A DNA stretch of 64,000 bases. Origin: Escherichia coli. GTDB taxonomy: Bacteria; Pseudomonadota; Gammaproteobacteria; Enterobacterales; Enterobacteriaceae. Positions 9,145 to 26,883 of this stretch are shown here, piece by piece (the first letter of the stretch is position 1; the number at the start of each line of letters is the position of its first letter). The translations under genes and the position numbers were made by a program. The DNA is taken from assembly GCF_051903065.1 (NCBI RefSeq), contig NZ_CP178438.1; one strand, given 5' to 3'. The notes beneath the pieces were generated by a model. It made no database searches. It was not told the origin of the DNA and saw only the letters and a program-made list of their open reading frames with translations.

Positions 9145-9212
9145 CCCGTCACCGCCACAACCATATCACACCTGTTTTCACTTTTATCTTCTGTCTTCAG
9201 AGGTATCCCACT

Positions 9213-9434
9213 ATGAAAATCATCACCCGTGGCGAAGCCATGCGTATTCACCGTCAGCATCCGGCATCCCGTCTTTTTCCGTTCTGTACCGGCAAATACC
9301 GCTGGCACGGCAGTGCTGAAGCGTATACCGGTCGTGAAGTGCAGGATATTCCCGGTGTGCTGGCCGTGTTTGCTGAACGCCGTAAGGACAGTTTTGGCCC
9401 GTATGTCCGGCTGATGAGCGTCACCCTGAACTGA
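9213..9434 (+). CDS. yeeT: DUF987 protein (YeeT-like)
   Basis: 73 aa MKIITRGEAMRIHRQHPASRLFPF... matches recalled YeeT. Confidence 0.85.
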   Translation: MKIITRGEAMRIHRQHPASRLFPFCTGKYRWHGSAEAYTGREVQDIPGVLAVFAERRKDSFGPYVRLMSVTLN

Positions 9435-9513
9435 GTCTGGAAGGGCATTCAGAAGAGCAGAATTATCGCCACCACCGGACCATTCTTAACCAATTTTCTG
9501 TGAGGATTTTATC

Positions 9514-9888: not shown

Positions 9889-9934
9889 CCCCGAATATCT
9901 CACCTTTAGCACTACCAGTTACAGAGAACTTAAG

Positions 9935-10312
9935 ATGAAAACATTACCTGACACACACGTACGGGAGGCATCGCGCTGCCCGTCTCCCGTCACCATCTGG
10001 CAGACACTGCTCACCCGACTGTTGGACCAGCATTACGGCCTCACACTGAATGACACACCGTTCGCTGATGAACGTGTGATTGAGCAGCATATTGAGGCAG
10101 GCATTTCACTGTGCGATGCGGTGAACTTTCTCGTTGAAAAATACGCACTGGTACGTACCGACCAGCCAGGATTCAGCGCCTGTACCCGTTCTCAGTTAAT
10201 AAACAGTATTGATATCCTCCGGGCCCGCCGGGCAACCGGCCTGATGGCCCGCGACAATTACAGAACGGTAAATAACATTACCCTGGGTAAACATCCGGGG
10301 GCGAAACAATGA
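9935..10312 (+). CDS. cbtA: CbtA (YeeV) toxin, cytoskeleton-binding type IV toxin
   Basis: 125 aa from ATG 9935 (MKTLPDTHV...); matches recalled YeeV (LNDTPFADERVIEQHIEAGISLCDAVNFLVEKYALVRTDQPGFSA); directly downstream of cbeA. Confidence 0.9.
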   Translation: MKTLPDTHVREASRCPSPVTIWQTLLTRLLDQHYGLTLNDTPFADERVIEQHIEAGISLCDAVNFLVEKYALVRTDQPGFSACTRSQLINSIDILRARRATGLMARDNYRTVNNITLGKHPGAKQ

Positions 10313-10800
10313 AACTGGCCCTGACGCTGGAAGCCGACAGCATTAACGTGCAGGCACTGAACATGGGGCGCATTGTCGTTGACGTCGATGGTGTTACTCT
10401 CGCTGAACTGATTAACGTGGTCTGCGATAACGGTTACTCCCTTCGTGTTGTTGATGAATCTGACCGGACATCAGCAGAGCGCACGCCATCATCTGCGGCG
10501 GCCCTTACCGGCATACGCTGCAGTACCGCGCATATCACGGCAAAGGACAACGCCTGGCTGTACTCGCTGTCACATCAGACGAATGGCACCGGCGAATCAG
10601 AATGGATTCATTTCACAGGTAGCGGATATCTGTTACGTACCGATGCGTGGTCATACCCGGTTCTGCGGCTTAAGCGCCTGGGCCTGTCAAAAACGTTCCG
10701 TCGTCTGGTTGTCACACTTACCCGACGTTATGGCGTCAGTCTCATTCATCTGGATGCCAGCGCTGAATGTCTGCCGGACCTGCCCACTTTCGACTGGTAA
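10309..10800 (+). CDS. YeeW-like protein
   Basis: 163 aa ORF whose start overlaps the cbtA stop; conserved position after cbtA. Confidence 0.65.
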   Translation: MKLALTLEADSINVQALNMGRIVVDVDGVTLAELINVVCDNGYSLRVVDESDRTSAERTPSSAAALTGIRCSTAHITAKDNAWLYSLSHQTNGTGESEWIHFTGSGYLLRTDAWSYPVLRLKRLGLSKTFRRLVVTLTRRYGVSLIHLDASAECLPDLPTFDW

Positions 10801-10811
10801 CCAGGAACAAC

Positions 10812-11009
10812 ATGAAATCATTAACCACGGAAACCGCACTGGATATTCTGATTGCGTGGCTACAGGACAATATCGACTGCGAATCGGGAATTATCTTTGA
10901 CAACGATGAGGATAGAACGGATTCGGCAGCACTGTTGCCCTGTATCGAACAGGCCAGGGAGGATATCCGTATCCTGCGCCAGTTGCAGCTTCTGCAACAG
11001 AACCGGTGA
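10812..11009 (+). CDS. Small hypothetical protein
   Basis: 65 aa from ATG 10812 (MKSLTTETALD...); followed by a hairpin plus T-tract terminator. Confidence 0.4.
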   Translation: MKSLTTETALDILIAWLQDNIDCESGIIFDNDEDRTDSAALLPCIEQAREDIRILRQLQLLQQNR

Positions 11010-11038
11010 GTCTTACTCACCAGACTTCATTCCACTGA

Positions 11039-11066
11039 CGCCAGCCTGAACAGGGCTGGCGTTTTC
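11039..11066 (+). terminator. Rho-independent terminator
   Basis: CGCCAGCC-TGAACAG-GGCTGGCG stem-loop followed by TTTTC. Confidence 0.65.
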
Positions 11067-11093
11067 ATTTATCTGCAAAAAGGAATATCGATT

Positions 11094-11960
11094 ATGTCTG
11101 AAATCACAGCCCCCCGTCCGGAAGTGGTCAACGGGCATACGGACGTTATCGGCTCAACCAGCATCCGCCACATTCTGGCTGTACGAAAGAGTGCGCTGCT
11201 GCAAATCGACACACTTATCCGGCAACTGGCAGAAATCTCGGTGCTGACGGAAAGCATCGGAGGTAAAACTGCACTGGACTGGGCCATGAAACAGGATTTT
11301 CGCTGCGGTTGCTGGCTGATGGAAAAACCGGAAACCGCAATGAAAGCCATCACCCGCAACCTTGACCGCGAAATCTGGCGTGATCTGATGCAACGTTCAG
11401 GGATGCTGTCATTAATGGATGCACAAGCCCGTGATACATGGTACCGGTCACTGGAGTACGATAATTTTCCGGAAATCAGCGAAGCAAATATCCTGAGCAC
11501 GTTTGAACAACTGCACCAGAACAAAGATGAAGTGTTTGAGCGAGGGGTGCTCAACGTTTTCAGAGGACTGAGCTGGAATTACAAAACCAATTCACCCTGC
11601 AAATTTGGCAGTAAAATTATCGTCAACAATCTGGTGAGGTGGGACCGGTGGGGGTTTCATCTTATCACCGGACAACAGGCCGATCGACTTGCCGATCTGG
11701 AAAGAATGCTGCACCTGTTCAGCGGCAAACCGATCCCCGACAACCGGGAAAACATCACCATTCATCTGGATGATCACATCCAGTCTGTTCAGGGTAAAGA
11801 GGACTATGAAGATGAGATGTTCAGCATCAGATACTTTAAGAAGGGCTCCGCGCACATCACGTTCAGGAAACCAGAGCTGGTTGACAGGCTTAATGATATT
11901 ATTGCCAGACACTACCCGGAAGCCCTGGCAAGCACAGTGAACAAAAGCCGCAAGGCATAA
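11094..11960 (+). CDS. Hypothetical protein (conserved island cargo)
   Basis: 288 aa uninterrupted ORF with AAAGGAA ribosome-binding site upstream; no catalytic motif recognised. Confidence 0.6.
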   Translation: MSEITAPRPEVVNGHTDVIGSTSIRHILAVRKSALLQIDTLIRQLAEISVLTESIGGKTALDWAMKQDFRCGCWLMEKPETAMKAITRNLDREIWRDLMQRSGMLSLMDAQARDTWYRSLEYDNFPEISEANILSTFEQLHQNKDEVFERGVLNVFRGLSWNYKTNSPCKFGSKIIVNNLVRWDRWGFHLITGQQADRLADLERMLHLFSGKPIPDNRENITIHLDDHIQSVQGKEDYEDEMFSIRYFKKGSAHITFRKPELVDRLNDIIARHYPEALASTVNKSRKA

Positions 11961-12031
11961 AAGAGGTATTTTACAATTCGCGAATATTAACTATTATTAA
12001 TTGATAGTAATCAATCGGCGAGAAAATAACC

Positions 12032-12295
12032 ATGCCTACCAGTGTATCCCTCAGTCCTTACTTTGAAACGTTTATCCGCGAACAAATAGAAAGTGGTCGG
12101 TACAACAATACAAGTGAAGTCATTCGTGCCGGACTTCGTGCTCTGGAAGAACGGGAACAGCAGATAAAGCTTGAATCACTCCAGAGCGCCGTGGCCGCAG
12201 GCATCAACAGCGGTGAAAGTAAAAGTGCTGAAGAGGTATTCGGGCGACTGACGCACAAATACAAAAAGATGGCAGAAGGTGAACAGCCAATATGA
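12032..12295 (+). CDS. parD: ParD-family type II antitoxin (RHH)
   Basis: 87 aa; start overlaps ParE by ATGA; motif SEVIRAGLRALEEREQ typical of ParD/COG3609. Confidence 0.8.
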   Translation: MPTSVSLSPYFETFIREQIESGRYNNTSEVIRAGLRALEEREQQIKLESLQSAVAAGINSGESKSAEEVFGRLTHKYKKMAEGEQPI

Positions 12296-12618
12296 AACTG
12301 ACTGTTTCACCATTAGCAGAACACGATCTTGAAGCTATAGGTGACTGGATCGCTCAGGATAATCCTGTCCGTGCAATCAGTTTTACCGAAGAGCTTTACC
12401 AACAATGTCTGTTGATAGCCGAATCGCCAGTACTCTACAGAGAAAGACCCGAGTTAGGGGCTGGGATCAGAGGTTGTTCGTATGGTCGTTACCTTCTGCT
12501 GTTCAGGGTACTGGATACTGAAGTTCGTATCGAACGTATCGTTCATGGTTCCCGGGATATCAACAGGGTACTTGCAGAGCCAGACGACAAACCATCAGAT
12601 CATTTCTGGCAGCCATAA
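12292..12618 (+). CDS. parE: ParE/RelE-family type II toxin
   Basis: 108 aa; 4-bp overlap with the upstream antitoxin; RelE/ParE-like size and context. Confidence 0.8.
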   Translation: MKLTVSPLAEHDLEAIGDWIAQDNPVRAISFTEELYQQCLLIAESPVLYRERPELGAGIRGCSYGRYLLLFRVLDTEVRIERIVHGSRDINRVLAEPDDKPSDHFWQP

Positions 12619-12895
12619 ACAAAATCTGTGCGTTAACGCTCCCTAACACAGGTAGCCAGGTATTTTATAAATCTCTGTATTTTGTTGTCACTTCGATTCC
12701 GCGATTCAGCATATCGAACCAGACAAAATGATTACAACAAACCACAAGAAAGAGGGATTATAGCGTCAAAAGAATTCGAATTGCACATGGGGGCCTCATT
12801 GGTGGCCTCAAAAAGAACAAGGATAAAACAGTCGATACAAAACAATTGGTTATATAACCAGTTTCATTCCGAGTCCGGGCACCACTATTCATAAG

Positions 12896-12920
12896 GCCTC
12901 GCTGCAAAGCGGGGCTTTTT
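12896..12920 (+). terminator. Rho-independent terminator
   Basis: GCCTCGC-TGCAAA-GCGGGGC hairpin (one G-U pair) followed by TTTTT. Confidence 0.5.
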
Positions 12921-13244
12921 CACTTTCTGGCTACGGTAGATTTCTGGCCATTGCAAAGCATTATCTATTGGCTGGTTTTTTTCGCCTTTTCACGGATGTT
13001 CGTGACGTTTATACACCTCAGTACCCTCTGATATACCTTCTCTCTGCTGCCTGAAAACAAGAAATTCAATAGGTTAATAATTTATGCGTTTGTCCATCTA
13101 AAGGCGACAGTTGCCACAGTATCTAAACTGACTGATGCAAAGTCCCTCTACCCGGTAAGGTATCAGGACCATCAACGCAGACTTTTCGCAACAACCACTA
13201 CCAAAATACCGCGTAAATAACCTTCCAGAACAAGCATGACTTTT

Positions 13245-13928
13245 TTAACTCTCTTTTCCCCACCTGAGAAGCACCTCTTCCGCAATCCCCACAGGCAAAA
13301 ACTCCTGCTCCAGACGACCACGCGGTAAACGGGTTAAGTAGCGATAAAAATCGGCCTCCTCGTTAAGCAAGCCATCAGGTACAGCTTCCTTCGCTATGAC
13401 CGGTTCTGGAACGGCGCTATGACTGGCATACTGCTCAAACAACTCACGGTTCATGAGCAGGGCATCAAGCGTCGGACGACAACGCCTGGCTCTCGCCAGC
13501 ATCAGTAGTCCCCAGCTATCCATGTCCCCCCAATAGGCAACGCGTTTTTCATCCAGAACAGAACTGGATAGCCATTGCACGTCCAGGCCACAGCCTAAAA
13601 TCGCGATAGTGTCAGATAATGCTGGAAGATGATGCAAACACTGCTCATTTTCAACCACCAGCACTTGCGACGCGGGTAATGTTGTTTCCGCCAGTTCCGC
13701 CGTTGTTACCCGGCATTTTTTAAAAGGAAGCAAGCCGGGTGATAATGGTACAACTAAAACCCAGTGACTGGACTCATCAAAAGCATCAAGAAAAGTTGTT
13801 AATCCCTGCTCGCTGGCTTCTCCTGAAAATCGCACGTCCAACTGACCATAGTGTTGTTCCACAAACGTAATTTCGGCAACCGTCCACTGTGCCCAGTGAT
13901 TACGGTAATGCTGCGTTTTATCCACCAT
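13245..13928 (-). CDS. Toprim-like (Topo VI-A/Spo11/JetD C-terminal-type) domain protein, standalone
   Basis: 227 aa; motifs VLVVENEQCLHHL and YWGDMDSWGLLML resemble the Toprim glutamate and DxD signatures of DUF2220/JetD; family assignment from recall only. Confidence 0.5.
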   Translation of the reverse strand: MVDKTQHYRNHWAQWTVAEITFVEQHYGQLDVRFSGEASEQGLTTFLDAFDESSHWVLVVPLSPGLLPFKKCRVTTAELAETTLPASQVLVVENEQCLHHLPALSDTIAILGCGLDVQWLSSSVLDEKRVAYWGDMDSWGLLMLARARRCRPTLDALLMNRELFEQYASHSAVPEPVIAKEAVPDGLLNEEADFYRYLTRLPRGRLEQEFLPVGIAEEVLLRWGKES

Positions 13929-13945: not shown

Positions 13946-15400
13946 TCAGTCTCGTTGTTTTTCCTGCGCCAGCGTAAAGATTTGAGCCCGGAGTTGTTGT
14001 TCAGCCTGCAGGACCGCCTGCTGACGCTGCAGTGAGACTTCAGGGAGCAACTTCAACTGCCGAAGCTGCTCTTCTACCGGTACGGTCTGCCGGAAGCTTG
14101 TCAGCATGCCAAAGACCTGCGATTTAAGCTCACTGACGGTAATGTATTTTCCTCTCTGACCATCAAGCGCATTCAGTTTATGGGCAAGTGCCTGAAGCTG
14201 TGTCATTCCTTCATGCCAGCCATTCATTGTATCGACAGGAAGTACTGAGACATTAACCTGTTGCTGCCACTGCTGTGTCAGAGGCTTAGCCTGCTCCGGC
14301 CACAACGACTGAGCTTGTTCTGTAAGTTTTCTGGCATAAGTGATATTCCAGTCAGGAGGTGATTTATCCAGTCGGGCCAGCTGCTGCTGTGTCTGTGCAA
14401 TAAGATCCTGCGGTAACGGAGTCTGCTGACGCAACATCCGCAGCTGTTCAGACGTGAGAGGTGCAGGGAACGGAGCCAGTGAAGCAGCTAGCTGATTCTG
14501 TAGAGGGTCTGGCCGGTGAATAAAATGCCAGCTCCACACTGAAACTATGCTTATCACCAACATGGTACACATCCCGGCGGCAAAGGATTTCCACTTTTTA
14601 ACCGGAACAGGCATTGTCGACAGCACTTCCACATTCGGCTGCGACTGCGGTTCCCGTTGAGCAACGTAAACCCACTGTACTGCACTCCCTGGCGTATCTT
14701 CATTCGGTCCACCAGAAAAGTCTCTCGTGGATGCTATCGCATCATTTGTCACGGTGGCAGGCAACCCGATACCAGGCTGAATGCTCGAGCCGGTACTGGT
14801 TATGCCATTGCTGTTTTCCAGCCGGGCAGCACTATTGTGCATCAGGATACGCAATGTATCGAGTTGGCTGAGATGTTTTAGCTCCAGGCGCTGTAGTACC
14901 TCTCCAAGGCCTGTAAGCAGTTGCTCCACCCGGTACAGCTGGTTGATGTCGCTGTAATTTAACGGGAGCGATCGCATTCGTTGCTGCAGGCGCTGACTCA
15001 GGCTGCTGAGGATTTCCATGCGGGCATGAACTGGATGCGGCCACAGAGTCCCCCACTGATGGCTTATCAGTGCCTCGAGTATCGCCAGCCCTTCATTGAG
15101 CCCGAATAAGCCAGCCAGCTGCGTACGCGCAAGCGTATACCAGGCTGCCGTTTGCAACTCCACGCCGTTCTGCTCAAACAGTGAGAGACAAAGTTTTTCG
15201 ACATACTGCCAGCTCACATCCGGGCGAGCCGGATGTGTTAGCTTACTCAGTTCATCACGCAGGGCGGCATAATCCGGTAGCATGCGCGGGTCGCCGCCGG
15301 TTTTTAATTTACGCTTGGGGATATCATTCATGGTCAGTTGTCCATTAGACGTACCAGGGGCTATTAAAGGGTATTGTTTATGCGGCTTCACTTTCTGCAT
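13946..15400 (-). CDS. ImpA_N-domain, membrane-anchored type VI secretion accessory protein (VasL/TagA-like)
   Basis: N-terminal GGDPRMLPDYAALRDEL...DVSWQYVEKL...LQTAAWYTLAR...GLNEGLAILEALISHQWGTLWP matches the ImpA_N signature; one predicted transmembrane helix (FAAGMCTMLVISIVSVWSW); start may be the internal ATG at 15331. Confidence 0.7.
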   Translation of the reverse strand: MQKVKPHKQYPLIAPGTSNGQLTMNDIPKRKLKTGGDPRMLPDYAALRDELSKLTHPARPDVSWQYVEKLCLSLFEQNGVELQTAAWYTLARTQLAGLFGLNEGLAILEALISHQWGTLWPHPVHARMEILSSLSQRLQQRMRSLPLNYSDINQLYRVEQLLTGLGEVLQRLELKHLSQLDTLRILMHNSAARLENSNGITSTGSSIQPGIGLPATVTNDAIASTRDFSGGPNEDTPGSAVQWVYVAQREPQSQPNVEVLSTMPVPVKKWKSFAAGMCTMLVISIVSVWSWHFIHRPDPLQNQLAASLAPFPAPLTSEQLRMLRQQTPLPQDLIAQTQQQLARLDKSPPDWNITYARKLTEQAQSLWPEQAKPLTQQWQQQVNVSVLPVDTMNGWHEGMTQLQALAHKLNALDGQRGKYITVSELKSQVFGMLTSFRQTVPVEEQLRQLKLLPEVSLQRQQAVLQAEQQLRAQIFTLAQEKQRD

Positions 15401-15995
15401 ATTCGAGACTCTGCAGATACTTTAGCGCCAGCGGGTCAGCAATATATTCAACCTGCCCGTGGTGACGCTCCACCTCATCGATTATCCGGCTGAGTTCACC
15501 CCGGAAAAACTTCTTATGCAGGTTGATTCGGTTAATCCGGTAGCTTTCCAGAGGGTCATGTAGTGTCTTTTCAAGCGCAGGAGCGTCATCGCTGGAAATC
15601 ATGGCGTGTGCGTCAAAATCAAACAGCACGGCTGCCCCGCTCAGTTCTTTCACGCGCTCCATAGGCTCCAGCCGTCGGGCCATGCCGATTTTGAAGACGT
15701 TTTCACCGAAGGAGCCGATATTAGAAATTACATACACATGTCCCTGCTTCGTGAACTGGGCCATAGATTTGGCGCGTTCATACTGCTGATGAACGTCCTG
15801 TATTTTCCGCTCCAGCTCCAGACGCTGTCTTTCCAGTTCATCCCTGTGAGCACCTTCTACGGCGAGCAGGGCTTCTTCCAGGAATACCGGTACACATTTT
15901 ACCGACCGGTCGTCGATACGAAGAACGAGTGCGCCAATATCAAATACTCCCCACTCAACCAGCAGGTCCGTAACGGATGTACTGATCAGTGTCAA
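15378..15995 (-). CDS. T5orf172 (GIY-YIG-like) domain protein with N-terminal coiled coil
   Basis: GHVYVISN...FKIGMARRLEPMERVKEL...LEKTLHDPL...INLHKKFFRGEL matches the T5orf172/Mug113 pattern; overlaps tssE by 41 bp and the VasL ORF by 23 bp, so the start is uncertain. Confidence 0.55.
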   Translation of the reverse strand: MTLISTSVTDLLVEWGVFDIGALVLRIDDRSVKCVPVFLEEALLAVEGAHRDELERQRLELERKIQDVHQQYERAKSMAQFTKQGHVYVISNIGSFGENVFKIGMARRLEPMERVKELSGAAVLFDFDAHAMISSDDAPALEKTLHDPLESYRINRINLHKKFFRGELSRIIDEVERHHGQVEYIADPLALKYLQSLEYAESEAA

Positions 15996-16425
15996 GATAC
16001 TGCTGTTGCTTCAGGTGTCTCAGCATCACTCGTCCCTCGGGCATAAACTCGGTGCCGTAACGCACGAGGCCAATCCCCTTAAGCTCAGCATCAATGGCAT
16101 AACGAAGCTCGCCGGGGACGCTCTGCTCCAGCAGGATGACAGTAATTTTTTTCAGGCGCGGTTCGTATTTGAGCAGGACGGCAGACAATGTGCCCATCAG
16201 CTCATGGGCCGTTCCCGGCATGCCCTGGAGAACTCTGGTCATATCCGGCAGGCCATAGTCCGGCAGATGCGCCAGCGTGCCGGCACGGCAGTTGAGGATA
16301 CGCTGCATATTGTCGAGTACGGACAAAATGACCTGGTTCTGCTCGCTGACCTGGTGCAGGTCGAGGCCGCCGGTGAAGTTGCCATAAAGAGTTTCATACA
16401 ATGAAGGACGGGATGACTCACTCAT
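15955..16425 (-). CDS. tssE: Type VI secretion baseplate subunit TssE (gp25-like)
   Basis: 156 aa; motifs SLYETL, LDNMQRILNCRAGTLAHLPDYGLPD, LKYEPRL typical of the TssE/GPW-gp25 family. Confidence 0.75.
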   Translation of the reverse strand: MSESSRPSLYETLYGNFTGGLDLHQVSEQNQVILSVLDNMQRILNCRAGTLAHLPDYGLPDMTRVLQGMPGTAHELMGTLSAVLLKYEPRLKKITVILLEQSVPGELRYAIDAELKGIGLVRYGTEFMPEGRVMLRHLKQQQYLDTDQYIRYGPAG

Positions 16426-16960
16426 CTTTCAGCGCCTTCAGGGTCAGGCGGTTGTTACCGGCCTCAATCACCCGGGCTTTATCCGGATCAAGGTCATCAC
16501 GGCTCAGCACCACCCGCCAGGTGTTGTTCACCTGGTCTGGCGACATAAACATGCCAGCCACTGCGACATACTGCGCATTTTCATCCATCGGCATATCCAC
16601 CATCACCGCCCCACCCGGCTGCAGGCGGATGTCTTTCTCAGCTACCAGGTCTGCTTTAATGGCCTGACTGTCCGCCCTGAACAGTGACGGGTAGTCCGTC
16701 GTGTCAAAGGTTTTGCGGTCTTTAAGCTGGTAAATACGCACCACCGTCGACAATGCCACGCCGCCTGCATTGCTGTTCACTGCCTCACGGGCCCGAATAT
16801 CCAGATGCAGAGTTTTTATCTGCTTATAAAAAATCGATTTGGTCACAGCAACGGTGCCGTCTGTCACTTTTTGCGTCAGCCCACAGCCCGCCAGCATCAA
16901 GGTGATACCCGCGGCCAGCGCAGCCAGAGGAAATTTACCAGCGGTAATCGCCATCTTCAT
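16418..16960 (-). CDS. tssJ: Type VI secretion lipoprotein TssJ (SciN/VasD-like)
   Basis: Start MKMAITAG with lipobox LAGC; VVRIYQLKD...LQPGG...AVAGMF pattern of the TssJ family; ATG at 16960 checked on the sequence. Confidence 0.75.
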   Translation of the reverse strand: MKMAITAGKFPLAALAAGITLMLAGCGLTQKVTDGTVAVTKSIFYKQIKTLHLDIRAREAVNSNAGGVALSTVVRIYQLKDRKTFDTTDYPSLFRADSQAIKADLVAEKDIRLQPGGAVMVDMPMDENAQYVAVAGMFMSPDQVNNTWRVVLSRDDLDPDKARVIEAGNNRLTLKALKDE

Positions 16961-17580
16961 CGGTCTCCCTGCGGTGAATATTTTCCTGTACCCGCTCATA
17001 GCGGCCCAGATTAATGGTGATTGTTTTTGGGTGTGATGCGGTCCTGGCCGCATTCAGCGGTCGCATCACGGCAGTGCGGCCCAGTTGCACCGCCCCTGCG
17101 TTGGGTTTACTGCTCATGGTCGCGTCAGGAAGCAGACTGCGATCGACACACAGCTGTAGCCGCACATCCAGGCGAGACCCAAGATACACGTGCAGGAGCG
17201 CCATCAGGTCCGCGTGAAGCTCCCCGCCCGATAACCAGCCCTGCACTTCTGCCGGGTCAGTGGTGGTCAGGCGCATCAGCACCTGGCTGTTCACGTCGGC
17301 GGCATAGTTGCCCATCACCGGTCGGTTTGTCAGGGTGACGGGCTGGCTAACGCTCATGGTCAATGGCTTCTTCAGCGGCACACGGCGTTTGTCGTGGTGC
17401 CAGATTTTCGCCTGCGTGTTGGGTGCCAGCAGGCGCACCAGCGAGGCCATGCCTTCTGCGGTACGCCCCGGCAGTAACATGACCGGCAGCAGTGCCAGAA
17501 AGCGCGAAGCCGGGGTCGCGATACTGTCCGTGCAGCCGTTAATCCCGAGCCCGGCCAGTCCCAGCAGGTACTGCGAGGTT
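16935..17580 (-). pseudogene. C-terminal fragment of a type VI secretion-associated gene, truncated by IS1
   Basis: The reading frame runs without a native start into the IS1 end at 17581; identity (TssG or other) not resolved. Confidence 0.5.
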
Positions 17581-17595
17581 GGTAATGACTCCAAC

Positions 17596-18099
17596 TTATT
17601 GATAGTGTTTTATGTTCAGATAATGCCCGATGACTTTGTCATGCAGCTCCACCGATTTTGAGAACGACAGCGACTTCCGTCCCAGCCGTGCCAGGTGCTG
17701 CCTCAGATTCAGGTTATGCCGCTCAATTCGCTGCGTATATCGCTTGCTGATTACGTGCAGCTTTCCCTTCAGGCGGGATTCATACAGCGGCCAGCCATCC
17801 GTCATCCATATCACCACGTCAAAGGGTGACAGCAGGCTCATAAGACGCCCCAGCGTCGCCATAGTGCGTTCACCGAATACGTGCGCAACAACCGTCTTCC
17901 GGAGCCTGTCATACGCGTAAAACAGCCAGCGCTGGCGCGATTTAGCCCCGACATAGCCCCACTGTTCGTCCATTTCCGCGCAGACGATGACGTCACTGCC
18001 CGGCTGTATGCGCGAGGTTACCGACTGCGGCCTGAGTTTTTTAAGTGACGTAAAATCGTGTTGAGGCCAACGCCCATAATGCGGGCTGTTGCCCGGCAT
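17596..18099 (-). CDS. insB: IS1 InsB
   Basis: 167 aa matching recalled IS1 InsB. Confidence 0.9.
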
Positions 18100-18293
18100 C
18101 CAACGCCATTCATGGCCATATCAATGATTTTCTGGTGCGTACCGGGTTGAGAAGCGGTGTAAGTGAACTGCAGTTGCCATGTTTTACGGCAGTGAGAGCA
18201 GAGATAGCGCTGATGTCCGGCGGTGCTTTTGCCGTTACGCACCACCCCGTCAGTAGCTGAACAGGAGGGACAGCTGATAGAAACAGAAGCCAC
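18018..18293 (-). CDS. insA: IS1 InsA
   Basis: 91 aa [43 protein letters not shown]... matches IS1 InsA. Confidence 0.9.
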
Positions 18294-18457
18294 TGGAGCA
18301 CCTCAAAAACACCATCATACACTAAATCAGTAAGTTGGCAGCATCACCAACGGAGACTATGTATTAAGAAGCCAATCGTAAAAACGGTTCCCTGGCGAGA
18401 TAAACGACAAACAAATGGAAAGCCGGATGATATTTACCTTCATCCGGCATTATTGAC

Positions 18458-20140
18458 TTACGAAACTAACATCCCGGTAAACACATACGCCTGCAACAGC
18501 GTGATAATGCCGATAACGCTGGCAAAAATCAGACTGTGCTTCACGGTGTAGCGGAACAGTTCAGATTCTCGGCCCACCATGCCCGTCGCGGCGCAGGCCA
18601 CGGCGATAGATTGCGGGGAGATCATCTTGCCAGTTACGCCGCCGCTGGTATTTGCTGCCACCAGCAGAGTGTCAGAGACGTTGATTTGCTGCGCCGTGGT
18701 CGATTGCAGTGAACCAAACAGGGCGTTAGAGGAGGTGTCCGAGCCGGTAAGGAATACGCCCAGCCAGCCGAGAAACGGTGAGAAGAACGGGAACATCACG
18801 CCTGTACCTGCCAGTACCAGCGCCAGCGTGGTGGACATGCCGGAATAGTTGGTGACGAAAGCGAACGCCAGCACCATGCCAATCGACAATATCGGCCACT
18901 TCAGACTAATTAGCGTTTCGGCAAAGACGCCAATCCCTTTCTTGATGCCCACGCCGAGGATGAAGATAGAGATAATCGCCGCAATAAAAATAGCGGTGCC
19001 GCCAGCCGAGAGGGGGTCGAATTTAAACACCGCATCCATCGGCGTTGGTTGGGCGACAATGGGTGCCGCTTTCAACACTTGTTGATGCAAATGAGGGATC
19101 TGGAAATTAATCACCAGTGAATAAAACGCGCCGCCCGGAGCAAATAACGCTTTAAACGGCTTCATGGTCCAGATGGTGACCAGCACCGTTAAGATTAAAA
19201 ACGGTGACCACGCTCGAATGATTTGCCCCAGACTATATTCTGAAGGCACGGGACCGCCAGAAGATGGCTTATTTACCACCATCGCACCTGCGGATTGTCC
19301 CATGCTGATTGCCGTTTCGGTATTTTTCGGCCGCCAGACTTTAAGGAATAAAGCGAGTGAGACGATACTCACCAGCGCCGAAGTAATATCCGGCAGTTCC
19401 GGACCAATATAATTAGAGGTAAAGAACTGAGTGACAGCGAAGCTTCCCCCAGCAACCAGCGCCGCTGGCCACGTCTCTTTCACCCCTTTCCAGCCGTCCA
19501 TCATTGCTACCAGCCAGAACGGCACAAGAACCGACAGGAACGGTAACTGACGTCCCGCCATTGCGCCAATGTGGAACGGATCGATTCCCGTTACCTGACC
19601 GGCGACCAGAATCGGCACGCCCAACGCACCAAACGCCACCGGCGCAGTATTGGCAATCAGACACAGCCCTGCCGCGTATAAAGGTTTGAAGCCCAGGCCC
19701 ACCAGCAGAGCACCAGTAATCGCCACCGGAGCACCAAAGCCAGCCGCCCCTTCCAGCAGCGCGCCAAAGGAGAAACCAATCAGTAACACCTGCAAACGCT
19801 GATCGTCAGTGATGGAGATGACCGAGCTGCGGATAATATCAAACTGACCGCTGGCAACGGTTAATTTATAGAGGAATACCGCTGCAACAATAATCCAGGC
19901 AATAGGCCATAAACCATAAATAAAGCCATAGCCCGCAGCAGCAAATGCCATATCAATCGGCATTTTAAAGGCGAATATCGCAATCAGGATAGATAATATA
20001 AGGGTTATCGCTCCAGCGACATGTCCTTTCAGACGTAATACCGCGAGTGCAACGAAGAAGAATATTATCGGGATCAGGGCGACCAGAGCGGATAGCCCCA
20101 GTCCTCCCATCGGCATATACATTTGGGTCCAGGTAACCAT
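18458..20140 (-). CDS. glcA: Glycolate/lactate permease GlcA (LctP family)
   Basis: 560 aa polytopic membrane protein; position downstream of glcB. Confidence 0.85.
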
Positions 20141-20495
20141 ATTGTTCAGTCTCTTATTATCTTTATATGCTTGATATACTTAAGGTTGTAATAAGCAAAA
20201 GAGGACTGAACTGTAAAATATAGGCGTTATACTTTACAGCAACAGTACGCCGCTAACGCAATTGCTACCTCTGGCATAACAAGTATATCGGGTAAGGGTT
20301 TCTGTTCCGCACACGCAGGCGCAGAGTATCGTTAAGATATCCATATTGTTGTTTTAGGCCCGCTAGTAATGCGCTACGGGTATTTAATATTGTTAAACCC
20401 TGATAATCGCTCCGGTTATTTCCGGGATAAATGTACTACCGCAGTTACTATCATAGCCCCGACAATAAAACTTGCCGGGGCTTTTTTTGACGCTA

Positions 20496-22667
20496 TTAAT
20501 GACTTTCTTTTTCGCGCAAACGCCAGGCGTGTAATAACGGTTCGGTATAGCCGTTTGGCTGTTTCACGCCAAGGAAGATTAAATCGCTGGCAGCCTTAAA
20601 GGCACACGAGTTAGCGAAATTCCCCGCCATCGGACGATAAGCCGGATCGCCAGCGTTTTGCTGATCAACCACTTTCGCCATATTCTCCAGCGACGCCTGC
20701 ACCTGTTCTTTGGTCAGAATACCGTGACGTAACCAGTTGGCGATATGCTGGCTGGAGATACGCAGCGTTGCGCGGTCTTCCATCAGCGCCACATTGTGAA
20801 TATCCGGCACTTTTGAACAACCAATCCCCTGCTCCACCCAGCGCACCACGTACCCCAGAATCCCCTGCACGTTGTTATCCAGCTCTTGTTGGATCTCTTG
20901 CGCCGACCAGTTAGCGTTTTCAGCAACCGGAATAGTCAGCAGATCGTCCAGCAGCGGTTCAAATTCAGCATTGAACTCGGTCTGGGCAATGTTGGCTTGC
21001 ACGCTCTGTACGTTGGTTTGGTGGTAGTGCAGCGCATGGAGCGTAGCAGCGGTTGGTGACGGAACCCAGGCTGTGTTTGCCCCGGCACGCAGTTGGTCGC
21101 CCTTCTGGCTGTACATGTCTGCCATCAGGTCCGGCATTGCCCACATGCCTTTACCAATTTGCGCTTTACCGCGCAGCCCACAGAACAGACCGGAAAGCAC
21201 GTTATTACGCTCGTAGGCTTTGATCCAAGGCGTCGATTTCATCTGATTTTTACGCAGCATCGGGCCAGCTTCCATCACCGAATGCATTTCATCGCCGGTA
21301 CGGTCGAGGAAACCGGTATTGATGAACGCCACGCGGTTGTGCGCCTGAGCGATACAGCTACGCAAGTTCAGCGAGGTCCGACGTTCTTCATCCATAATGC
21401 CCATTTTCAGGGTATTCGGTGCCATACCGAGCATTGTCTCAATGCGGGTAAACAGTTTGTTGGCGAACGCCACTTCCAGCGGACCGTGCATTTTCGGTTT
21501 CACAATATAGACGCTGCCAGTGCGCGAGTTTTTCTGCACTTTTAAATCATAGAGGGCAATCGCGCCAGTCATGACGCCATCAAGAATGCCTTCCGGTATT
21601 TCATTACCTTCGCTGTCCCAAATCACAGGAATGGTCATCAAATGACCCACGTTGCGGATAAACAGCAACGAGCGTCCGTGCAGAGAAATTTCAGAGCCAT
21701 CGGCGGCGGTGTACTGACGATCGTCATTCAGTTTACGTACGATTTGCCGACCGTTTTTCTCCATTTTCTCTTGCAGAGTCCCCTGCATCAGGCCCAGCAG
21801 GTTGCGGTACAGCAGGATTTTATCTTCCGCATCAACCGCCGCGACCGAATCTTCGCAGTCGAGAATGGTACTGATGGCCGCTTCGACGATAACATCGTTG
21901 ATGTGCGCCGGATCGTCTTTGCCAATCCGCCCGTTGGCATCGATTTGTAGCTCAATATGCAGGCCGTTATTTTTCAGCAAAATGCAGGTCGGCGCAGCGG
22001 TATCGCCACGGTAACCGACAAACTGCGCCGGGGTACGTAACGTGGTTTCTTTACCATTTTTCAACTGGATGCGTAATTGTTTATCGACCACCTTAAACGC
22101 CACCACATCCTGATAGCTGCCGTTTTCCAGCGGTAGAGATTCATCGAGGAAACGCCGAACCCAGGCGATAACTTGCTCACCGCGTTGCGGATCGTAGCCG
22201 CTGACCATCGCCCCTTCCTGTGGGATGATGTCGCTGCCGTATAACGCATCGTACAGTGAGCCCCAGCGAGCGTTCGCCGCGTTCAGCGCGTAGCGGGTGT
22301 TCATTGCCGGAACCACCAGCTGTGGCCCCGCCTGACTGGTGATTTCGCTGTCAATGCCCGTGGTTTCCACCGTCACGCGCTCCGGTTGCGGCACCAGGTA
22401 GCCCAGTTCACGCAGGAAAGATTTATAGGCCGCTTTATCTTTTACCGGCCCCGGATTGCTGCGATGCCACTCATCAAGCGCCGCCTGAATGCGATCGCGT
22501 TCTGCCAGCAACTGACGATTTTCTGGTGCCAGATCGTGAACGATCTCATCAAAATTGCGCCAGAACGCCGCAGCGTCCAGCCCTGTTCCCGGTAAAACTT
22601 CTTCATCCACAAAACGTTTAAAATTGGCGTCAATGCGTAAACGGCCCTGGGTTATGGTTTGACTCAT
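20496..22667 (-). CDS. glcB: Malate synthase G
   Basis: 723 aa; matches recalled GlcB ([31 protein letters not shown]...). Confidence 0.95.
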
Positions 22668-22688
22668 TGTTTCTCTCCTCGTTTTCGC

Positions 22689-23093
22689 TTATTTCGCCAA
22701 CACCGCTGCTGCCGCTTTCGCGACCTGCGCATCCTGTGCTCCGGTTAAACCAGAAACGCCCACGGCACCAATAATTTGCCCATCAACAACAACCGGTACG
22801 CCGCCTTCCAGCGACGTTAATAACGGCGCAGTCACGAACGCGGTACGTCCGTTGTTCACCATCTCTTCATAGCCCTTAGTTTCACGACGCCCCAGCGCGG
22901 CGGTACGCGCTTTCTCTTGGGAGATGTAAGCCGCAATCGGCGCGCAATCGTCCATGCGACTTAACGCCAGCAGATGACCGCCGTCATCGGCAACAGCAAT
23001 GGAAACAGACCAGTTATTTTTCTGCGCCTCTTCCTGACCTGCGGCAATAATTGCACTCGCCATTTGCTGGCTAAGAATGACTTTAGTTTTCAT
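22689..23093 (-). CDS. glcG: GlcG protein
   Basis: Start MKTKVILSQQMASAIIAAGQEEA; ORF track extends to 23111. Confidence 0.85.
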   Translation of the reverse strand: MKTKVILSQQMASAIIAAGQEEAQKNNWSVSIAVADDGGHLLALSRMDDCAPIAAYISQEKARTAALGRRETKGYEEMVNNGRTAFVTAPLLTSLEGGVPVVVDGQIIGAVGVSGLTGAQDAQVAKAAAAVLAK

Positions 23094-23097
23094 TTTT

Positions 23098-24321
23098 TTA
23101 TTCCTTTTCAAGGGCTTGTTCTACAATTTCAATCCAGTGACGCACAGAGGTACGACCGGCGCTCGCCAGATGCGTCTGGCAACCAATGTTGGCGGTGACG
23201 ATCATTTCCGGTTTGCCGCTTTCCAGCGCATTCATTTTGTTATCCCGCAGCTGGCGTGCCAGATCGGGATGCGTGAACGCATATGTTCCCGCTGAACCGC
23301 AGCACAGATGGCTGTCGGGAACGTCCGTTAAGGTAAATCCAAGACGAAGCAACACTTTTTCCACTTCGCCGTTCAGCTTTTGCGCATGTTGTAGGGTACA
23401 CGGGCAGTGGAAGGCCAGTTTTTTATCGCCGCGAATTGCCAGTTTTTCCAGCGGTTCCTCGCGCAGAAGCTCGACTAAATCGACCGCCAGTTCACTGACC
23501 TGACGCGCTTTATCGGCATATAACGCATCGTTTTTCAGCATCTGCCCATACTCTTTGACAAACGCGCCGCAACCGCTGGCGGTTTGCAAAATTGCCTCGG
23601 CACCTGCTTCAATCGCGGGCCACCAGGCATCAATATTATTGCGCACCCGTGCCAGCCCTTTCTCCTGCGCATTAAGATGATAGTCCACCGCGCCACAACA
23701 GCCTGCTTCGTTAGCTGGCATGACGCTGATCCCCAGACGATCCAGCACTCGCGCAGTTGCCGCGTTGGTGTTGGGCGAAAGCGTAGGCTGGGCGCAGCCT
23801 TCCAGCATTAAAACCCGACGCTTATGGCGCAGCGGCGGACGCGGTTTAGCTTTCACCGTTTCAGCAGGCAGTTTTGCTCTGACCTGTTCCGGTAAAAACG
23901 GTCGCAGCACCAGCCCTACCTGCGTCAGCGCACGGAAGACCGCCGGACGCGGCACTACCTGGCGCAATCCTTCGCGCAGTATTCGCTCCGGCAGTGGGCG
24001 TTTCACTTTCTGCTCGACAATATCACGCCCGATATCCAGCAAATTGTGATAGCGCACACCAGAAGGACAGGTGGTTTCACAATTGCGGCAAGTGAGGCAG
24101 CGATCGAGATGCTCCTGTGTTTTAAGCGTGACTTCGTTGCCTTCCAGCACCTGTTTAATCAGATAGATGCGCCCGCGCGGCCCGTCCAGTTCATCGCCCA
24201 GAAGCTGATAGGTTGGGCAGGTTGCGGTACAAAATCCGCAGTGAACACAGGCGCGCAGGATGCTGTCGGCTTCCAGCGCGCGCGCGTTCTGCCGCATCTC
24301 TTCAGTTAATTGGGTTTGCAT
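23098..24321 (-). CDS. glcF: Glycolate oxidase iron-sulfur subunit GlcF
   Basis: Start MQTQLTEEM; two CxxCxxC ferredoxin-type clusters (CVHCGFCTATCP, CLTCRNCETTCP). Confidence 0.9.
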   Translation of the reverse strand: MQTQLTEEMRQNARALEADSILRACVHCGFCTATCPTYQLLGDELDGPRGRIYLIKQVLEGNEVTLKTQEHLDRCLTCRNCETTCPSGVRYHNLLDIGRDIVEQKVKRPLPERILREGLRQVVPRPAVFRALTQVGLVLRPFLPEQVRAKLPAETVKAKPRPPLRHKRRVLMLEGCAQPTLSPNTNAATARVLDRLGISVMPANEAGCCGAVDYHLNAQEKGLARVRNNIDAWWPAIEAGAEAILQTASGCGAFVKEYGQMLKNDALYADKARQVSELAVDLVELLREEPLEKLAIRGDKKLAFHCPCTLQHAQKLNGEVEKVLLRLGFTLTDVPDSHLCCGSAGTYAFTHPDLARQLRDNKMNALESGKPEMIVTANIGCQTHLASAGRTSVRHWIEIVEQALEKE

Positions 24322-24331
24322 AGCCTGCTCC

Positions 24332-25384
24332 TCAAAGTTCCGCGTACATGCGACCGGGGTTAAACACGCCGCAAGGGTCGAGCTGCTGTTTAAGCTGCTG
24401 GTGATAGCGGAATAAAGGAGCCGATAGCGGGGCAAAGCCACCATCTCCGGCACTAAAGCGGGTCGCATGACCGCCAGCGTTGCGGGCGATGCGATGGATT
24501 TGATTGTCCTCGGCTGTCGATTTCAGCCAGCGTAACGCCCCGCCCCAGTCGATCAGTTGCTCGCCGGGTAAATCCATCATCGGCGCATCGCTGGGTAATG
24601 AAATGCGCCATAAGGTACCTGGTAACGAGAAGAACGGCAGTTGTTGTTCACGCAATTGCTGCCAGAACTGACCCGCCACCTCTTCGCCACCCAGCAGTTC
24701 ACGCGCTGCTTTTACCGATCCTTCGCCGCCCTCAAGGCGGATCCACAACGCATTGTCGAAGTAACATAAGCCACTAATGGGTAATGGCTGGAGTTGCCAC
24801 TCGGCGATTTCACTCATGGCTTCTTGCAGGCTGATTTCCCGACGCAGGCTCAGGGAGGCGCGCGGTCGCGGTAACACTTTCATTGAGATTTCAGTGAGCA
24901 CGCCAAGACAACCGTAGCTTCCGGCCATTAACCGTGAGAGATCGTATCCGGCAACGTTTTTCATCACTTCGCCACCAAAACGCAGATGTTTTCCAGCGCC
25001 GGTAATGATGCGCGTGCCGAGGACAAAATCGCGGACCGAACCGCTCCACGGGCGACGCGGCCCCGCCAGCCCGCAGGCGACCATCCCGCCCCAGGTGGCT
25101 TCTTCACCATAATGTGGCGGCTCGCAGGGGAGCATTTGCCCCGCGCTCTCCAGCGCCGCTTCAATCGCCACCAGCGGCGTTCCGGCACGAGCGGTTATCA
25201 CCAGCTCGGTCGGGTCGTAATTAACAATGCCGCGATGACAACGCACATCCAGCGTTTGCCCGGTGACAGGGCGACCTAAAAAGGCTTTGCTATTGCTGCC
25301 CTGAATCACCAGCGGCGTTTTATTGCTAATTGCCTGATTCACCTGCTCCAGCAGCGCCTGGCTGTAATCACACTCGCGTAGCAT
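24332..25384 (-). CDS. glcE: Glycolate oxidase FAD-binding subunit GlcE
   Basis: 350 aa; synteny between glcF and glcD. Confidence 0.9.
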   Translation of the reverse strand: MLRECDYSQALLEQVNQAISNKTPLVIQGSNSKAFLGRPVTGQTLDVRCHRGIVNYDPTELVITARAGTPLVAIEAALESAGQMLPCEPPHYGEEATWGGMVACGLAGPRRPWSGSVRDFVLGTRIITGAGKHLRFGGEVMKNVAGYDLSRLMAGSYGCLGVLTEISMKVLPRPRASLSLRREISLQEAMSEIAEWQLQPLPISGLCYFDNALWIRLEGGEGSVKAARELLGGEEVAGQFWQQLREQQLPFFSLPGTLWRISLPSDAPMMDLPGEQLIDWGGALRWLKSTAEDNQIHRIARNAGGHATRFSAGDGGFAPLSAPLFRYHQQLKQQLDPCGVFNPGRMYAEL

Positions 25385-26883
25385 CAGAAACGCTCCAGTT
25401 CAGGAAAAGGTAAATGACCGTGATGCACGTGCATGGCACCAAATTCAGCACAGCGGTGTAGCGTGGGAATGTTTTTTCCTGGGTTCAGCAAACCATCCGG
25501 ATCAAACGCCGCCTTGACCGCATGAAAGGTCGTGATTTCATCGCTGTTGAACTGGGCGCACATTTGATTGATTTTTTCTCGCCCGATGCCATGTTCCCCA
25601 CTGATGCTGCCGCCAACTTCAACGCAGAGTTCGAGGATCTTCCCGCCCAGCACTTCCGCGCGGGCAAATTCACCGGGTTCGTTGGCATCGAAAAGGATTA
25701 AAGGGTGCATGTTGCCGTCTCCGGCATGAAAGACGTTGGCAACGCGTAAATCATATTGCTGCGATAAACGGGCAATGCCTTCCAGTACGCCAGGCAGCGC
25801 GCGGCGCGGGATGGTGCCATCCATGCAGTAGTAATCCGGGGAGATACGTCCTACCGCCGGGAATGCATTTTTGCGACCGGCCCAGAAACGTACGCGCTCT
25901 GCTTCGTCCTGTGCCAGACGGACGTCAGTCGCGCCCGCTTTCAACAAGATGTCGTTAACCCGCTCGCAGTCTTCCTGTACATCAGACTCCACGCCGTCCA
26001 GCTCGCATAACAAAATCGCTTCGGCGTCGACGGGATAACCGGCATGAATAAAATCTTCCGCCGCGCGGATCGACAGGTTATCCATCATCTCCAGCCCGCC
26101 GGGGATAATGCCATTGGCGATGATGTCACCAACCGCAAGTCCGGCTTTTTCTACCGAGTCAAAGCTTGCTAACAGAACCCGCGCCACGGGCGGCTTCGGC
26201 AGCAGTTTTACCGTCACTTCGGTGGTCACGCCGAGCATACCTTCCGATCCGGTGAACAACGCCAGCAGGTCAAAACCAGGCGAATCCAGCGCATCCGATC
26301 CCAGCGTCAGCGCCTCGCCATCCAGCGTTTGCACTTCAATTTTCAGCAGGTTATGTACGGTCAGACCATATTTCAGGCAGTGGACGCCGCCGGCATTTTC
26401 AGCCACATTGCCGCCAATCGAACAGGCGATTTGTGATGAAGGATCCGGCGCGTAATAGAGATTATGCGGCGCAACGGCCTGGGAGATCGCCAGGTTACGC
26501 ACGCCCGGCTGCACACGCGCGCGGCGACCAACGGGGTTAATGTCGAGGATCTCTTTAAAGCGCGCCATCACCAACAACACACCTTTTTCCAGCGGCAGCG
26601 CGCCACCAGAAAGCCCGGTGCCTGCACCACGGGTCACCACCGGTACACGCAGGCGGTGGCAGACAGCCAGAATCGCTGTCACCTGTTCCATCTGCTTAGG
26701 CAGAACAACCAGTAATGGACGCGTGCGATACGCGCTCAACCCGTCACACTCGTAAGGAATGATCTCCTCATCGGTATGCAGGATCTCCAGTCCAGGGACA
26801 TGCTCACGCAGTGCCATCAGTACCGATGTGCGGTCGACATCGGGTAAAGCGCCATCAAGACGCTCTTCGTACAAGATGCTCAT
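25384..26883 (-). CDS. glcD: Glycolate oxidase subunit GlcD (FAD-linked oxidase)
   Basis: 499 aa; first gene of the glcDEFGBA operon. Confidence 0.9.
   Translation of the reverse strand: MSILYEERLDGALPDVDRTSVLMALREHVPGLEILHTDEEIIPYECDGLSAYRTRPLLVVLPKQMEQVTAILAVCHRLRVPVVTRGAGTGLSGGALPLEKGVLLVMARFKEILDINPVGRRARVQPGVRNLAISQAVAPHNLYYAPDPSSQIACSIGGNVAENAGGVHCLKYGLTVHNLLKIEVQTLDGEALTLGSDALDSPGFDLLALFTGSEGMLGVTTEVTVKLLPKPPVARVLLASFDSVEKAGLAVGDIIANGIIPGGLEMMDNLSIRAAEDFIHAGYPVDAEAILLCELDGVESDVQEDCERVNDILLKAGATDVRLAQDEAERVRFWAGRKNAFPAVGRISPDYYCMDGTIPRRALPGVLEGIARLSQQYDLRVANVFHAGDGNMHPLILFDANEPGEFARAEVLGGKILELCVEVGGSISGEHGIGREKINQMCAQFNSDEITTFHAVKAAFDPDGLLNPGKNIPTLHRCAEFGAMHVHHGHLPFPELERF

Follow-up and report, generated by a model that had tools for sequence, protein, structure and literature searches.

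The window analysed here, a stretch of 64 kb of E. coli DNA, contains a copy of the insertion sequence IS1 that lies between the remains of a T6SS locus and the glycolate permease gene glcA. In the initial annotation this copy was taken to mark the junction of an IS1-mediated adjacent deletion. The locus thereby raises the question whether DNA has indeed been lost at this position, which DNA it was and by which route it was removed.

Members of the IS1 family are characterized by a length of approximately 768 bp between imperfect terminal inverted repeats of approximately 23 bp, and by the two frames insA and insB', which are joined by a -1 frameshift at an A6C motif. In the window the element (IS1A-like) extends from 17581 to 18348, is intact with 768 bp and carries its transposase genes on the minus strand. 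The IRR end (GGTAATGACTCCAACTTATTGAT, 17581-17603, plus strand) adjoins tssG and the IRL end (GGTGATGCTGCCAACTTACTGAT, 18326-18348, minus strand) faces glcA. Both ends agree with the degenerate IS1 end pattern without a single mismatch; they are the only two matches in the entire 64-kb window, and none is expected from shuffled sequences. The insA ORF (18018-18293, minus strand) encodes 91 aa and the insB' frame was found in the ORF list at 17596-18099 on the same strand. The A6C frameshift motif TTAAAAAAC is located at 18036-18044, corresponding to IS1 position 305. RefSeq names the identical sequence [quoted passage not shown], and the products match the Pfam families Zn_ribbon_InsA, HTH_Tnp_IS1 and DDE_Tnp_IS1. 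By each structural test, from inverted repeats and ORFs to the RefSeq name, the element is an IS1. A second IS1 that could act as partner in a composite element or an inversion was sought across the 64-kb window and none was found.

An IS1 insertion usually generates a target-site duplication of 8 or 9 bp (PMC12428005). We read the 9 bp to the left of the element as TGCGAGGTT (17572-17580, plus strand) and the 9 bp to the right as AACGGAGAC (18349-18357, plus strand), so that the left junction consists of TGCGAGGTT followed by GGTAATGACTCC and the right junction of GCAGCATCACC followed by AACGGAGAC. These are the same two 9-mers that had been reported as different at the outset: they agree at 3 of 9 positions, and the left one has no copy on the right. 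No k-mer of 5 or more bases is shared between the two 30-bp flanks of IS1. When the ends were re-examined base by base, no duplication with up to 2 mismatches was detected around the element at any of the lengths (7-14) and end offsets (-2 to +2) scanned. Because the 8- or 9-bp duplication of a simple insertion is absent in the window, we call this IS1 copy rearranged. Two further copies served as positive controls. The second IS1 of 23CRST031, located in yghO, is flanked by the 8-bp duplication CGAATTCA, the same site being empty in the window (28327-28334), and the glcA-side IS1 of E. coli HS is flanked by the perfect 9-bp duplication GGTTATCTG. The absent duplication reflects the history of this one IS1 copy and is not a property of the element.

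We then assigned the neighboring genes, converting RefSeq locus coordinates to window coordinates by subtracting 3420. On the left side a T6SS remnant is found, all of it on the minus strand. It comprises a VasL-domain gene (13946..15331; RefSeq annotation, Pfam ImpA_N and VasL), an intact tssE (15955..16425, 156 aa; ORF list and annotation), an intact tssJ (16418..16954, 178 aa; annotation, Pfam T6SS-SciN) and, directly at the IS1, a tssG of which only the 3' 646 nt are kept (16935..17580). The truncated T6SS gene noticed earlier on one side of IS1 is therefore this tssG without its N-terminus: approximately 150 N-terminal codons out of 364-367 are gone, and in RefSeq genomes with identical sequence the gene is annotated as a pseudogene, "TssG, incomplete, missing N-terminus". 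With vasL, tssE, tssJ and the 3' part of tssG left, the T6SS core-gene set (tssA-M, hcp, vgrG, clpV/tssH) is incomplete at this locus, and the remnant cannot form a secretion apparatus.

On the right side glcA is intact (18458..20140, minus strand, 560 aa; ORF list and annotation). The tail 3' of the gene is kept over 109 bp (18349..18457, minus strand), which is the distance from the glcA stop codon to the end of IS1 and agrees with the approximately 110 bp given before. This tail contains an inverted repeat (GCCGGATGA, 18422-18430, and TCATCCGGC, 18440-18448). A simple terminator scan did not call this hairpin, its loop being 9 nt and the maximum of the scan 8. The glc operon together with its 3' hairpin is intact in the window. 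Relative to transcription, the breakpoint is on the 3' side of glcA, so that the lost DNA had been misplaced when it was described as upstream of glcA. A tRNA scan of the 64-kb window returned no tRNA gene, and pheV is therefore located outside the window.

To define what is missing we used 5,426 complete E. coli genomes as comparison set. The tssG-tssJ-tssE DNA is rare and occurs in only 7 of them. Three of the 7 carry the junction of the window, and in the other four (33F4, 32F4, 33E and PapRG-06-5) tssG is full-length, with 88-89% identity. To the right of IS1, a stretch of 122 bp represents a minority allele of the 3' flank of glcA; 41 of the 5,426 genomes have it at full length, and all four genomes with full-length tssG are among these 41 carriers. 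The 109-bp tail is 100% identical in 39 other genomes with this allele. In the intact relatives the two flanks of the IS1 are collinear, in the same order and orientation, at a distance of 46,367 bp in 33F4 and of 49,189 bp in PapRG-06-5. On the 33F4 locus the bases that immediately precede and follow IS1 correspond to 2180 and 48548, respectively; the tssG part of the window aligns to 1535-2180, the full-length gene there extending over 1535-2629. In both relatives the breakpoints are sharp on both sides. Across the breakpoint the intact tssG reads ...GGTAAGGACAA and continues with AACCTCGCAG; in the aligned relatives ...TGCGA(G/A)GTT is continued by TTGTCCTTACC. On the intact glcA side ...TTTGCATTGTAA precedes AACGGAGAC. 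The comparison with intact loci thus bears out the view of the IS1 as a deletion junction, with flanks 46.4-49.2 kb apart, and defines the gap in 33F4 and PapRG-06-5.

Read from glcA to tssG, the 46,367 bp in 33F4 comprise a winged-helix regulator, an Flp/Tad pilus locus, a TcfC-type cluster and the T6SS core; the gap content of PapRG-06-5 is equivalent. The Flp/Tad locus consists of flp, a prepilin peptidase, cpaB, a secretin, tadZ, cpaF, two TadB/C-type proteins, a TPR protein and tadE/F/G-type pseudopilins. It is followed by a fimbrial cluster of six genes that includes a TcfC-type usher-like protein. The T6SS part contains tssB, tssC, tssK, tssL, an OmpA-family protein, hcp, tssH, vgrG, lipase and PAAR effector modules, tssM, tssA, tssF and the 5' end of tssG. 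The expectation that the rest of the T6SS locus had been removed holds, since tssB to tssF and the 5' part of tssG all fall into the gap. We also considered a translocation or inversion instead of a loss. Both halves of the gap were searched against the 5,426 genomes, and the three junction genomes were absent among the near-identical matches (≥98%) listed. We therefore regard the 46-kb DNA as lost and not moved. The estimate of 46-49 kb is based on relatives whose tssG-tssE DNA is 88-89% identical. In some relatives with identical TssE the island has undergone internal deletions, and the locus may thus have been shorter than this in the ancestor.

In the initial annotation the DNA lost on the glcA side had been taken for the yghJ/gsp region of K-12. 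We found a different situation. Most E. coli indeed have an arrangement with sslE (yghJ), pppA and gsp behind glcA, as seen in HS, in MLI104K1 and in the feature names of the genomes. However, this arrangement belongs to another glcA flank allele than that of the window. Where the neighbor of the window allele is preserved, it is the winged-helix regulator with the Flp/Tad locus, followed by the TcfC-type cluster and the T6SS. In addition, draft relatives with identical TssE lead from VasL straight to yqgA-speC-nupG-mltC-mutY, with no gsp or sslE in between. As the 109-bp flank is a non-K-12 allele and its preserved neighbors are the regulator and Tad genes, we rejected yghJ/gsp as the lost DNA; a Tad/fimbrial/T6SS island takes its place.

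Next, we assessed how widely the junction is distributed. It is present in 3 of the 5,426 complete genomes, two from human faecal isolates (Ecuador) and one from a meat isolate (China). A stretch of 2,768 bp spanning the junction is identical or differs by approximately 1 base in these three independently assembled genomes. Over its full length the window is an exact match to none of the three and is therefore counted as a fourth representative. The junction also creates a predicted ORF of 219 aa, which has a TTG start inside the IRR of IS1 and runs into the truncated tssG. Its exact product was found in 50 blocks of a large assembly collection that includes draft and metagenome assemblies, mostly at contig ends, as short-read assemblies break at IS copies. 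Because the junction occurs in 3 of 5,426 genomes and its left part in these 50 blocks, we conclude that it is inherited and no artefact of assembly. The exact TssE protein is found in 545 blocks of the collection, and many of the contigs concerned have intact tssG, tssF, tssA and tssM. The carriers of the junction therefore form a subclade of a broader lineage in which the island persists.

The most informative relative is GCA_949766195.1. Its junction between IRR and tssG is identical to that of the window, and its IS1 differs by 1 nt. The IRL end, which faces glcA in the window, is joined here to position 30881 inside a fatty acyl-AMP ligase gene. As a result the genome is devoid of the 12,532 bp at 18349-30880 of the window, and glcA, glcB, glcG, glcF, glcE, glcD, glcC, yghO and most of the ligase gene have been lost in addition. 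In detail, positions 1-8077 of its locus correspond to 38957-30881 of the window and positions 8078-13564 to 18348-12863. In comparison to the window, 23CRST031 and ECNB21-M121 the flanks show 0-3 substitutions in 12.4 kb, for which reason we assign GCA_949766195.1 to the same clone as the window. Deletions with one common IS terminus and different far ends are the classical signature of IS-promoted adjacent deletion. This is the pattern observed here: one IS-flank junction is common to both sequences, and the far endpoint differs (18349 versus 30881). The second deletion in GCA_949766195.1 clearly began at the resident IS1. We favor adjacent deletion because a clonal relative shows such nested deletions from one IS end.

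Judging from this anatomy, a resident IS1 probably made the junction by transposase-mediated adjacent deletion, that is, by intramolecular ("abortive" or replicative) transposition. A single IS is located at the junction, and its flanks are non-adjacent yet collinear in intact genomes, as expected for such an event. In the scenario we propose, IS1 would have arrived as a simple insertion, likelier in the AT-rich intergenic DNA 3' of glcA. Transposase would then have linked IRR to a target within tssG, in the same DNA molecule, and the DNA between would have been discarded. In one sublineage the IRL end would later have done likewise in rightward direction. The GC content over ±150 bp is 37% at the glcA-side site versus 55-57% at the tssG site. 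Together with the IS1 landings past glcA in other lineages, this weakly suggests that the anchor end was on the glcA side. The data for GCA_949766195.1 are equally compatible with an IS1 that had its first site in tssG.

An IS without duplication may be explained by decay of the duplication, by recombination between two IS copies or by adjacent deletion (PMC11708052). A possible alternative to adjacent deletion, though one to which we give distinctly less credence, is homologous recombination that depends on RecA: with direct copies of IS1 in tssG and 3' of glcA, a crossover within the element would have excised the 46-49 kb. The copy in tssG would have been flanked by the duplication TGCGAGGTT and the copy at glcA by AACGGAGAC, the survivor keeping half of each. 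Such an event predicts exactly what we observed, namely a single IS1 with unlike flanks that are collinear in intact relatives; the end product alone cannot separate it from adjacent deletion because both yield the same final sequence. Recombination between IS copies is a frequent cause of missing duplications (PMC11708052). The abundance of IS1, with 28-37 matching places per junction genome, renders the extra insertions less improbable, and the island has attracted IS repeatedly (IS1 in GDSC2227PM and XJ34, IS1B in CUWW06 and 100416, an IS3-family element in 2018-05-2CC). However, neither of the two required simple insertions was found in the 5,426 complete genomes or by their predicted ORFs in the assembly collection, and to account for the 12.5-kb deletion of GCA_949766195.1 in this way, a further direct insertion of IS1, the third, would be required within the ligase gene. 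Between the window and 23CRST031 the junction IS1 is invariant, and a difference of 1 nt sets apart the copies of GDSC2227PM and GCA_949766195.1; no chimeric or hybrid variant pattern is seen. This is weak evidence against recombination, since the compared copies are near-identical and a crossover could hardly show. Of the original proposal, adjacent deletion stands as the probable route and has gained likelihood from the nested deletions; recombination between IS1 copies keeps a smaller share of our confidence, and no progenitor was found. One IS1 insertion suffices for adjacent deletion in contrast to three direct insertions for recombination, which is the reason for this weighting.

A progenitor of the junction would contain TGTAAAACGGAGAC joined to GGTAATGACTCC if IS1 had been first at glcA, or GCAGCATCACC joined to TGCGAGGTTTTGTCC if it had been first in tssG. 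Among the 5,426 complete genomes no other carried IS1 at either junction with the other flank intact. A simple insertion in tssG with a 9-bp duplication should yield an ORF of 162 aa and a simple insertion at the glcA site one of 85 aa. Neither is on record in a look-up of exact products, in which an 8-bp duplication would alter the former ORF and gene callers may skip ORFs of this kind. Draft contigs end inside IS1, so that the absence of a progenitor from the assembly collection weighs little. The same absence, in complete genomes and predicted ORFs, could be read in favor of a single step, in which the deletion coincided with the arrival of a new IS1 copy and no duplication was made, no IS1 being resident at either breakpoint before. 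Such a non-canonical route has already been proposed, IS movement coupled to rearrangement having been suggested for IS5 and IS481 (PMC11708052). We nevertheless consider it very unlikely at this locus. All 14 IS-associated deletions of the long-term evolution experiment (LTEE) that were examined consisted of an insertion followed by adjacent deletion (PMC11708052), the progenitor negatives are weak given the breakage of draft contigs at IS1, and the second deletion in GCA_949766195.1 started from an IS1 already in place. In a milder version of the idea, IS1 would have a true landing hotspot directly 3' of glcA. That no deletion took place at all, the junction being a simple IS1 insertion with a decayed duplication or a mis-assembly across the repeat, we regard as next to impossible. 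In its favor stands no more than the common experience that duplications can decay and that assemblers are misled by IS copies. A decayed or offset duplication is ruled out by the scan of the flanks and by their distance in intact relatives, where sequences matching at 3 of 9 positions lie 46-49 kb apart; the junction recurs in three independently assembled complete genomes besides the window, and its left part in dozens of draft and metagenome assemblies.

Deletion formation by IS1 has a long history. Reif and Saedler (1975) are said to have described the classical formation of IS1 deletions in gal, and Turlan and Chandler (1995) reportedly demonstrated by experiment that intramolecular rearrangements and replicative deletions of IS1 depend on its transposase. 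As in the window, a single IS1 is kept in these classical deletions (replicative, gal), the deletion starts at the IS1 terminus and no duplication is present. In contrast to the experimental proof of transposase dependence there, the mechanism at our locus is inferred from the anatomy of the junction and the nested deletion of the relative. In the nfsB region of clinical E. coli, deletions of 11-66 kb are found directly adjacent to a resident IS1 with variable far endpoints and have been attributed to the ligation of one IS1 end to a target on the same molecule (PMC10569738). The losses of 46-49 kb and 12.5 kb in the clone of the window match them in size range and anatomy. The nfsB deletions arose and were selected in the laboratory under nitrofurantoin with the parent available (PMC10569738), whereas the event in the window is historical and fixed in a natural clone. 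The LTEE also contains IS copies at deletion junctions without duplications, where earlier samples already had an IS insertion at the site, and deletions there often grew stepwise (PMC11708052), a pattern resembled by the state of the window and the larger deletion of GCA_949766195.1. Unlike in the window, the LTEE element belongs to the IS3 family and the order of events was proven by a time series (PMC11708052). With its size, anatomy and nesting the junction fits into the known class of large IS1-anchored deletions.

The closest counterpart to a state before deletion is provided by E. coli HS (NC_009800.1). As in the window, its IS1 is located in the intergenic DNA past glcA, approximately 120 bp from the stop codon. 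Unlike the window copy, it has a perfect 9-bp duplication and an intact neighboring sslE, is oppositely oriented and lies in the common K-12-type flank allele. HS shows the kind of state that precedes a deletion, which was not found for the lineage of the window. Its 9-bp site is also used in FCI56 and MLI104K1, two genomes with the K-12-type flank allele that have one common right junction between IS1 and glcA (GGTTATCTG...). Their left flanks differ, consisting of a helix-turn-helix regulator in one and a truncated gspC in the other, and neither genome shows a duplication. In PK8277, likewise with the K-12-type flank allele, an IS1 without duplication is positioned 23 bp nearer to glcA. In at least 35 genomes an IS1 is located no more than a few hundred bp from the 3' end of glcA, a count that is uncorrected for shared ancestry and in which one orientation is favored.

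Independent truncations of this island occur in other genomes that share the glcA flank allele of the window. In GDSC2227PM the IS1 bridges positions 29323 and 47141 of the 33F4 locus without a duplication; together with FCI56, MLI104K1 and HS, we count this parallel case in favor of adjacent deletion. XJ34 carries a divergent IS1 in the winged-helix gene of the island, and in 2018-05-2CC the IS3-family element is positioned 203 bp to the left of the breakpoint of the window. In O145:H28 genomes the Tad locus is reduced to approximately 6 kb. Two draft relatives have internal deletions in the island at which no IS is present.

A literature search directed at this island returned no description of the deletion. 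The particular deletion seems to be undescribed, and IS1-anchored deletion as a process is textbook knowledge; the case is a clear but ordinary example of IS-driven genome erosion and poses no new mechanistic question. It explains why the clone has a dead T6SS stub and neither a Tad pilus nor TcfC-type fimbriae beside glcA, and it corrects the content of the loss, which does not consist of the K-12 yghJ/gsp genes, as this lineage never possessed them there. The exact IS1-tssG junction can be used as a clone-specific PCR or k-mer marker. If the DNA 3' of glcA were a true hotspot, the variable stretch from pheV to glcA would be eroded repeatedly and in a lineage-specific manner, affecting T2SS-beta/SslE in most E. 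coli and Tad, fimbriae and T6SS here. The loss of the whole glc operon in the relative indicates that the IS1 copy is still reshaping the region.

In the lineage of the window, the interval from glcA to yqgA/speC is occupied by an island that replaces the usual sslE-gsp (T2SS-beta) region and carries Tad/Flp pilus, TcfC-type fimbrial and T6SS genes. It is represented by positions 1-48547 of L005, the locus of genome 33F4, and by L006, the corresponding locus of PapRG-06-5. The Tad/fimbrial half is complete in five complete genomes, four of which also have a full-length tssG. In the other roughly 35 genomes with the flank allele we found the island at many differing stages of decay, and every O145:H28 genome among the matches listed contains a decayed island. 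Genome GDSC2227PM carries an IS1A (L009 6325-7092) which has the same orientation as the window copy and differs from it by 1 nt. This element joins position 29323 of L005 to position 47141 and a duplication is absent. It marks an independent 17.8-kb deletion that left this same island without its TcfC cluster or Tad locus. Two draft relatives with identical TssE show internal T6SS deletions (L012 5147-5149; L018 6789-7536), with L012 fusing position 25954 of L005 to position 5679. Neither deletion junction contains any IS, and the island therefore decays by IS-independent routes too.

A further deletion was observed in GCA_949766195.1, a clonal relative. Here 12,532 bp corresponding to window 18349-30880 are missing, and the deletion starts at the IRL terminus of the IS1 shared with the window (L011 8078-8845, identical to L021). 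The lost genes comprise the entire glc operon from glcA to glcC, yghO and most of the fatty acyl-AMP ligase gene, and this strain should be incapable of glycolate use via the glc pathway. In 23CRST031 an extra IS1 of 767 bp, annotated as frameshifted, is located in yghO (L001 31755-32521), inverted with respect to the junction IS1 and flanked by the 8-bp duplication CGAATTCA. The same yghO site is unoccupied in the window (28327-28334) as well as in ECNB21-M121, which belongs to the same clone as 23CRST031. IS1 was therefore active after strain divergence.

In genomes with the common K-12-type flank allele, IS1 seems to land repeatedly in the DNA immediately 3' of glcA. An IS1 lies beside the glcA 3' end in FCI56, MLI104K1, PK8277 and E. 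coli HS (elements at L003 8001-8768, L004 8001-8768, L002 8002-8769 and L031 5267-6034). FCI56 and MLI104K1 share the right IS1 junction GGTTATCTG, whereas their left flanks are unlike each other; a duplication is absent in both. In E. coli HS the same 9-bp site holds an IS1 in reverse orientation with a perfect duplication, and sslE is intact. The IS1 of PK8277 is placed 23 bp off that site. In at least 35 of 5,426 genomes, counted without correction for shared ancestry, an IS1 lies no more than a few hundred bp from glcA.

Left of the T6SS remnant, the window contains a CP4-like island with yeeU/cbtA, antirestriction, radC and parDE genes (6200-13000, compared with L001 and L007). Between the window and the three junction genomes this island is a mosaic of blocks with 92-99% identity, while the DNA from 12863 up to the junction is nearly invariant, which suggests recombination or an exchange of the island after the deletion. 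Fragments of a JetD-domain (Wadjet) pseudogene and a GIY-YIG nuclease gene (13245-13865 and 15378-15881) adjoin the T6SS remnant. The GIY-YIG fragment is likewise partial in 33F4, where the island is intact, and is therefore older than the IS1 event. Downstream of yghO (window about 29452-38500) lies a putative lipid-type biosynthetic cluster that is unusual for E. coli. By the RefSeq annotation of L001 and L007 its products are a fatty acyl-AMP ligase, an epimerase/dehydratase, an acyl carrier protein, serine palmitoyltransferase (spt), LptF/LptG paralogues, a YtfJ-family protein and a polysaccharide biosynthesis protein.

On the minus strand (window 16935-17594), a 219-aa ORF predicted by gene callers runs from the IS1 IRR into the truncated tssG, starting at a TTG 14 bp within the IRR. 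This ORF is an artefact of the IS junction. Its product scores in Pfam as a TssG-domain protein, 50 blocks of the assembly collection contain it as a deposited protein, and it could be misread as a short TssG.
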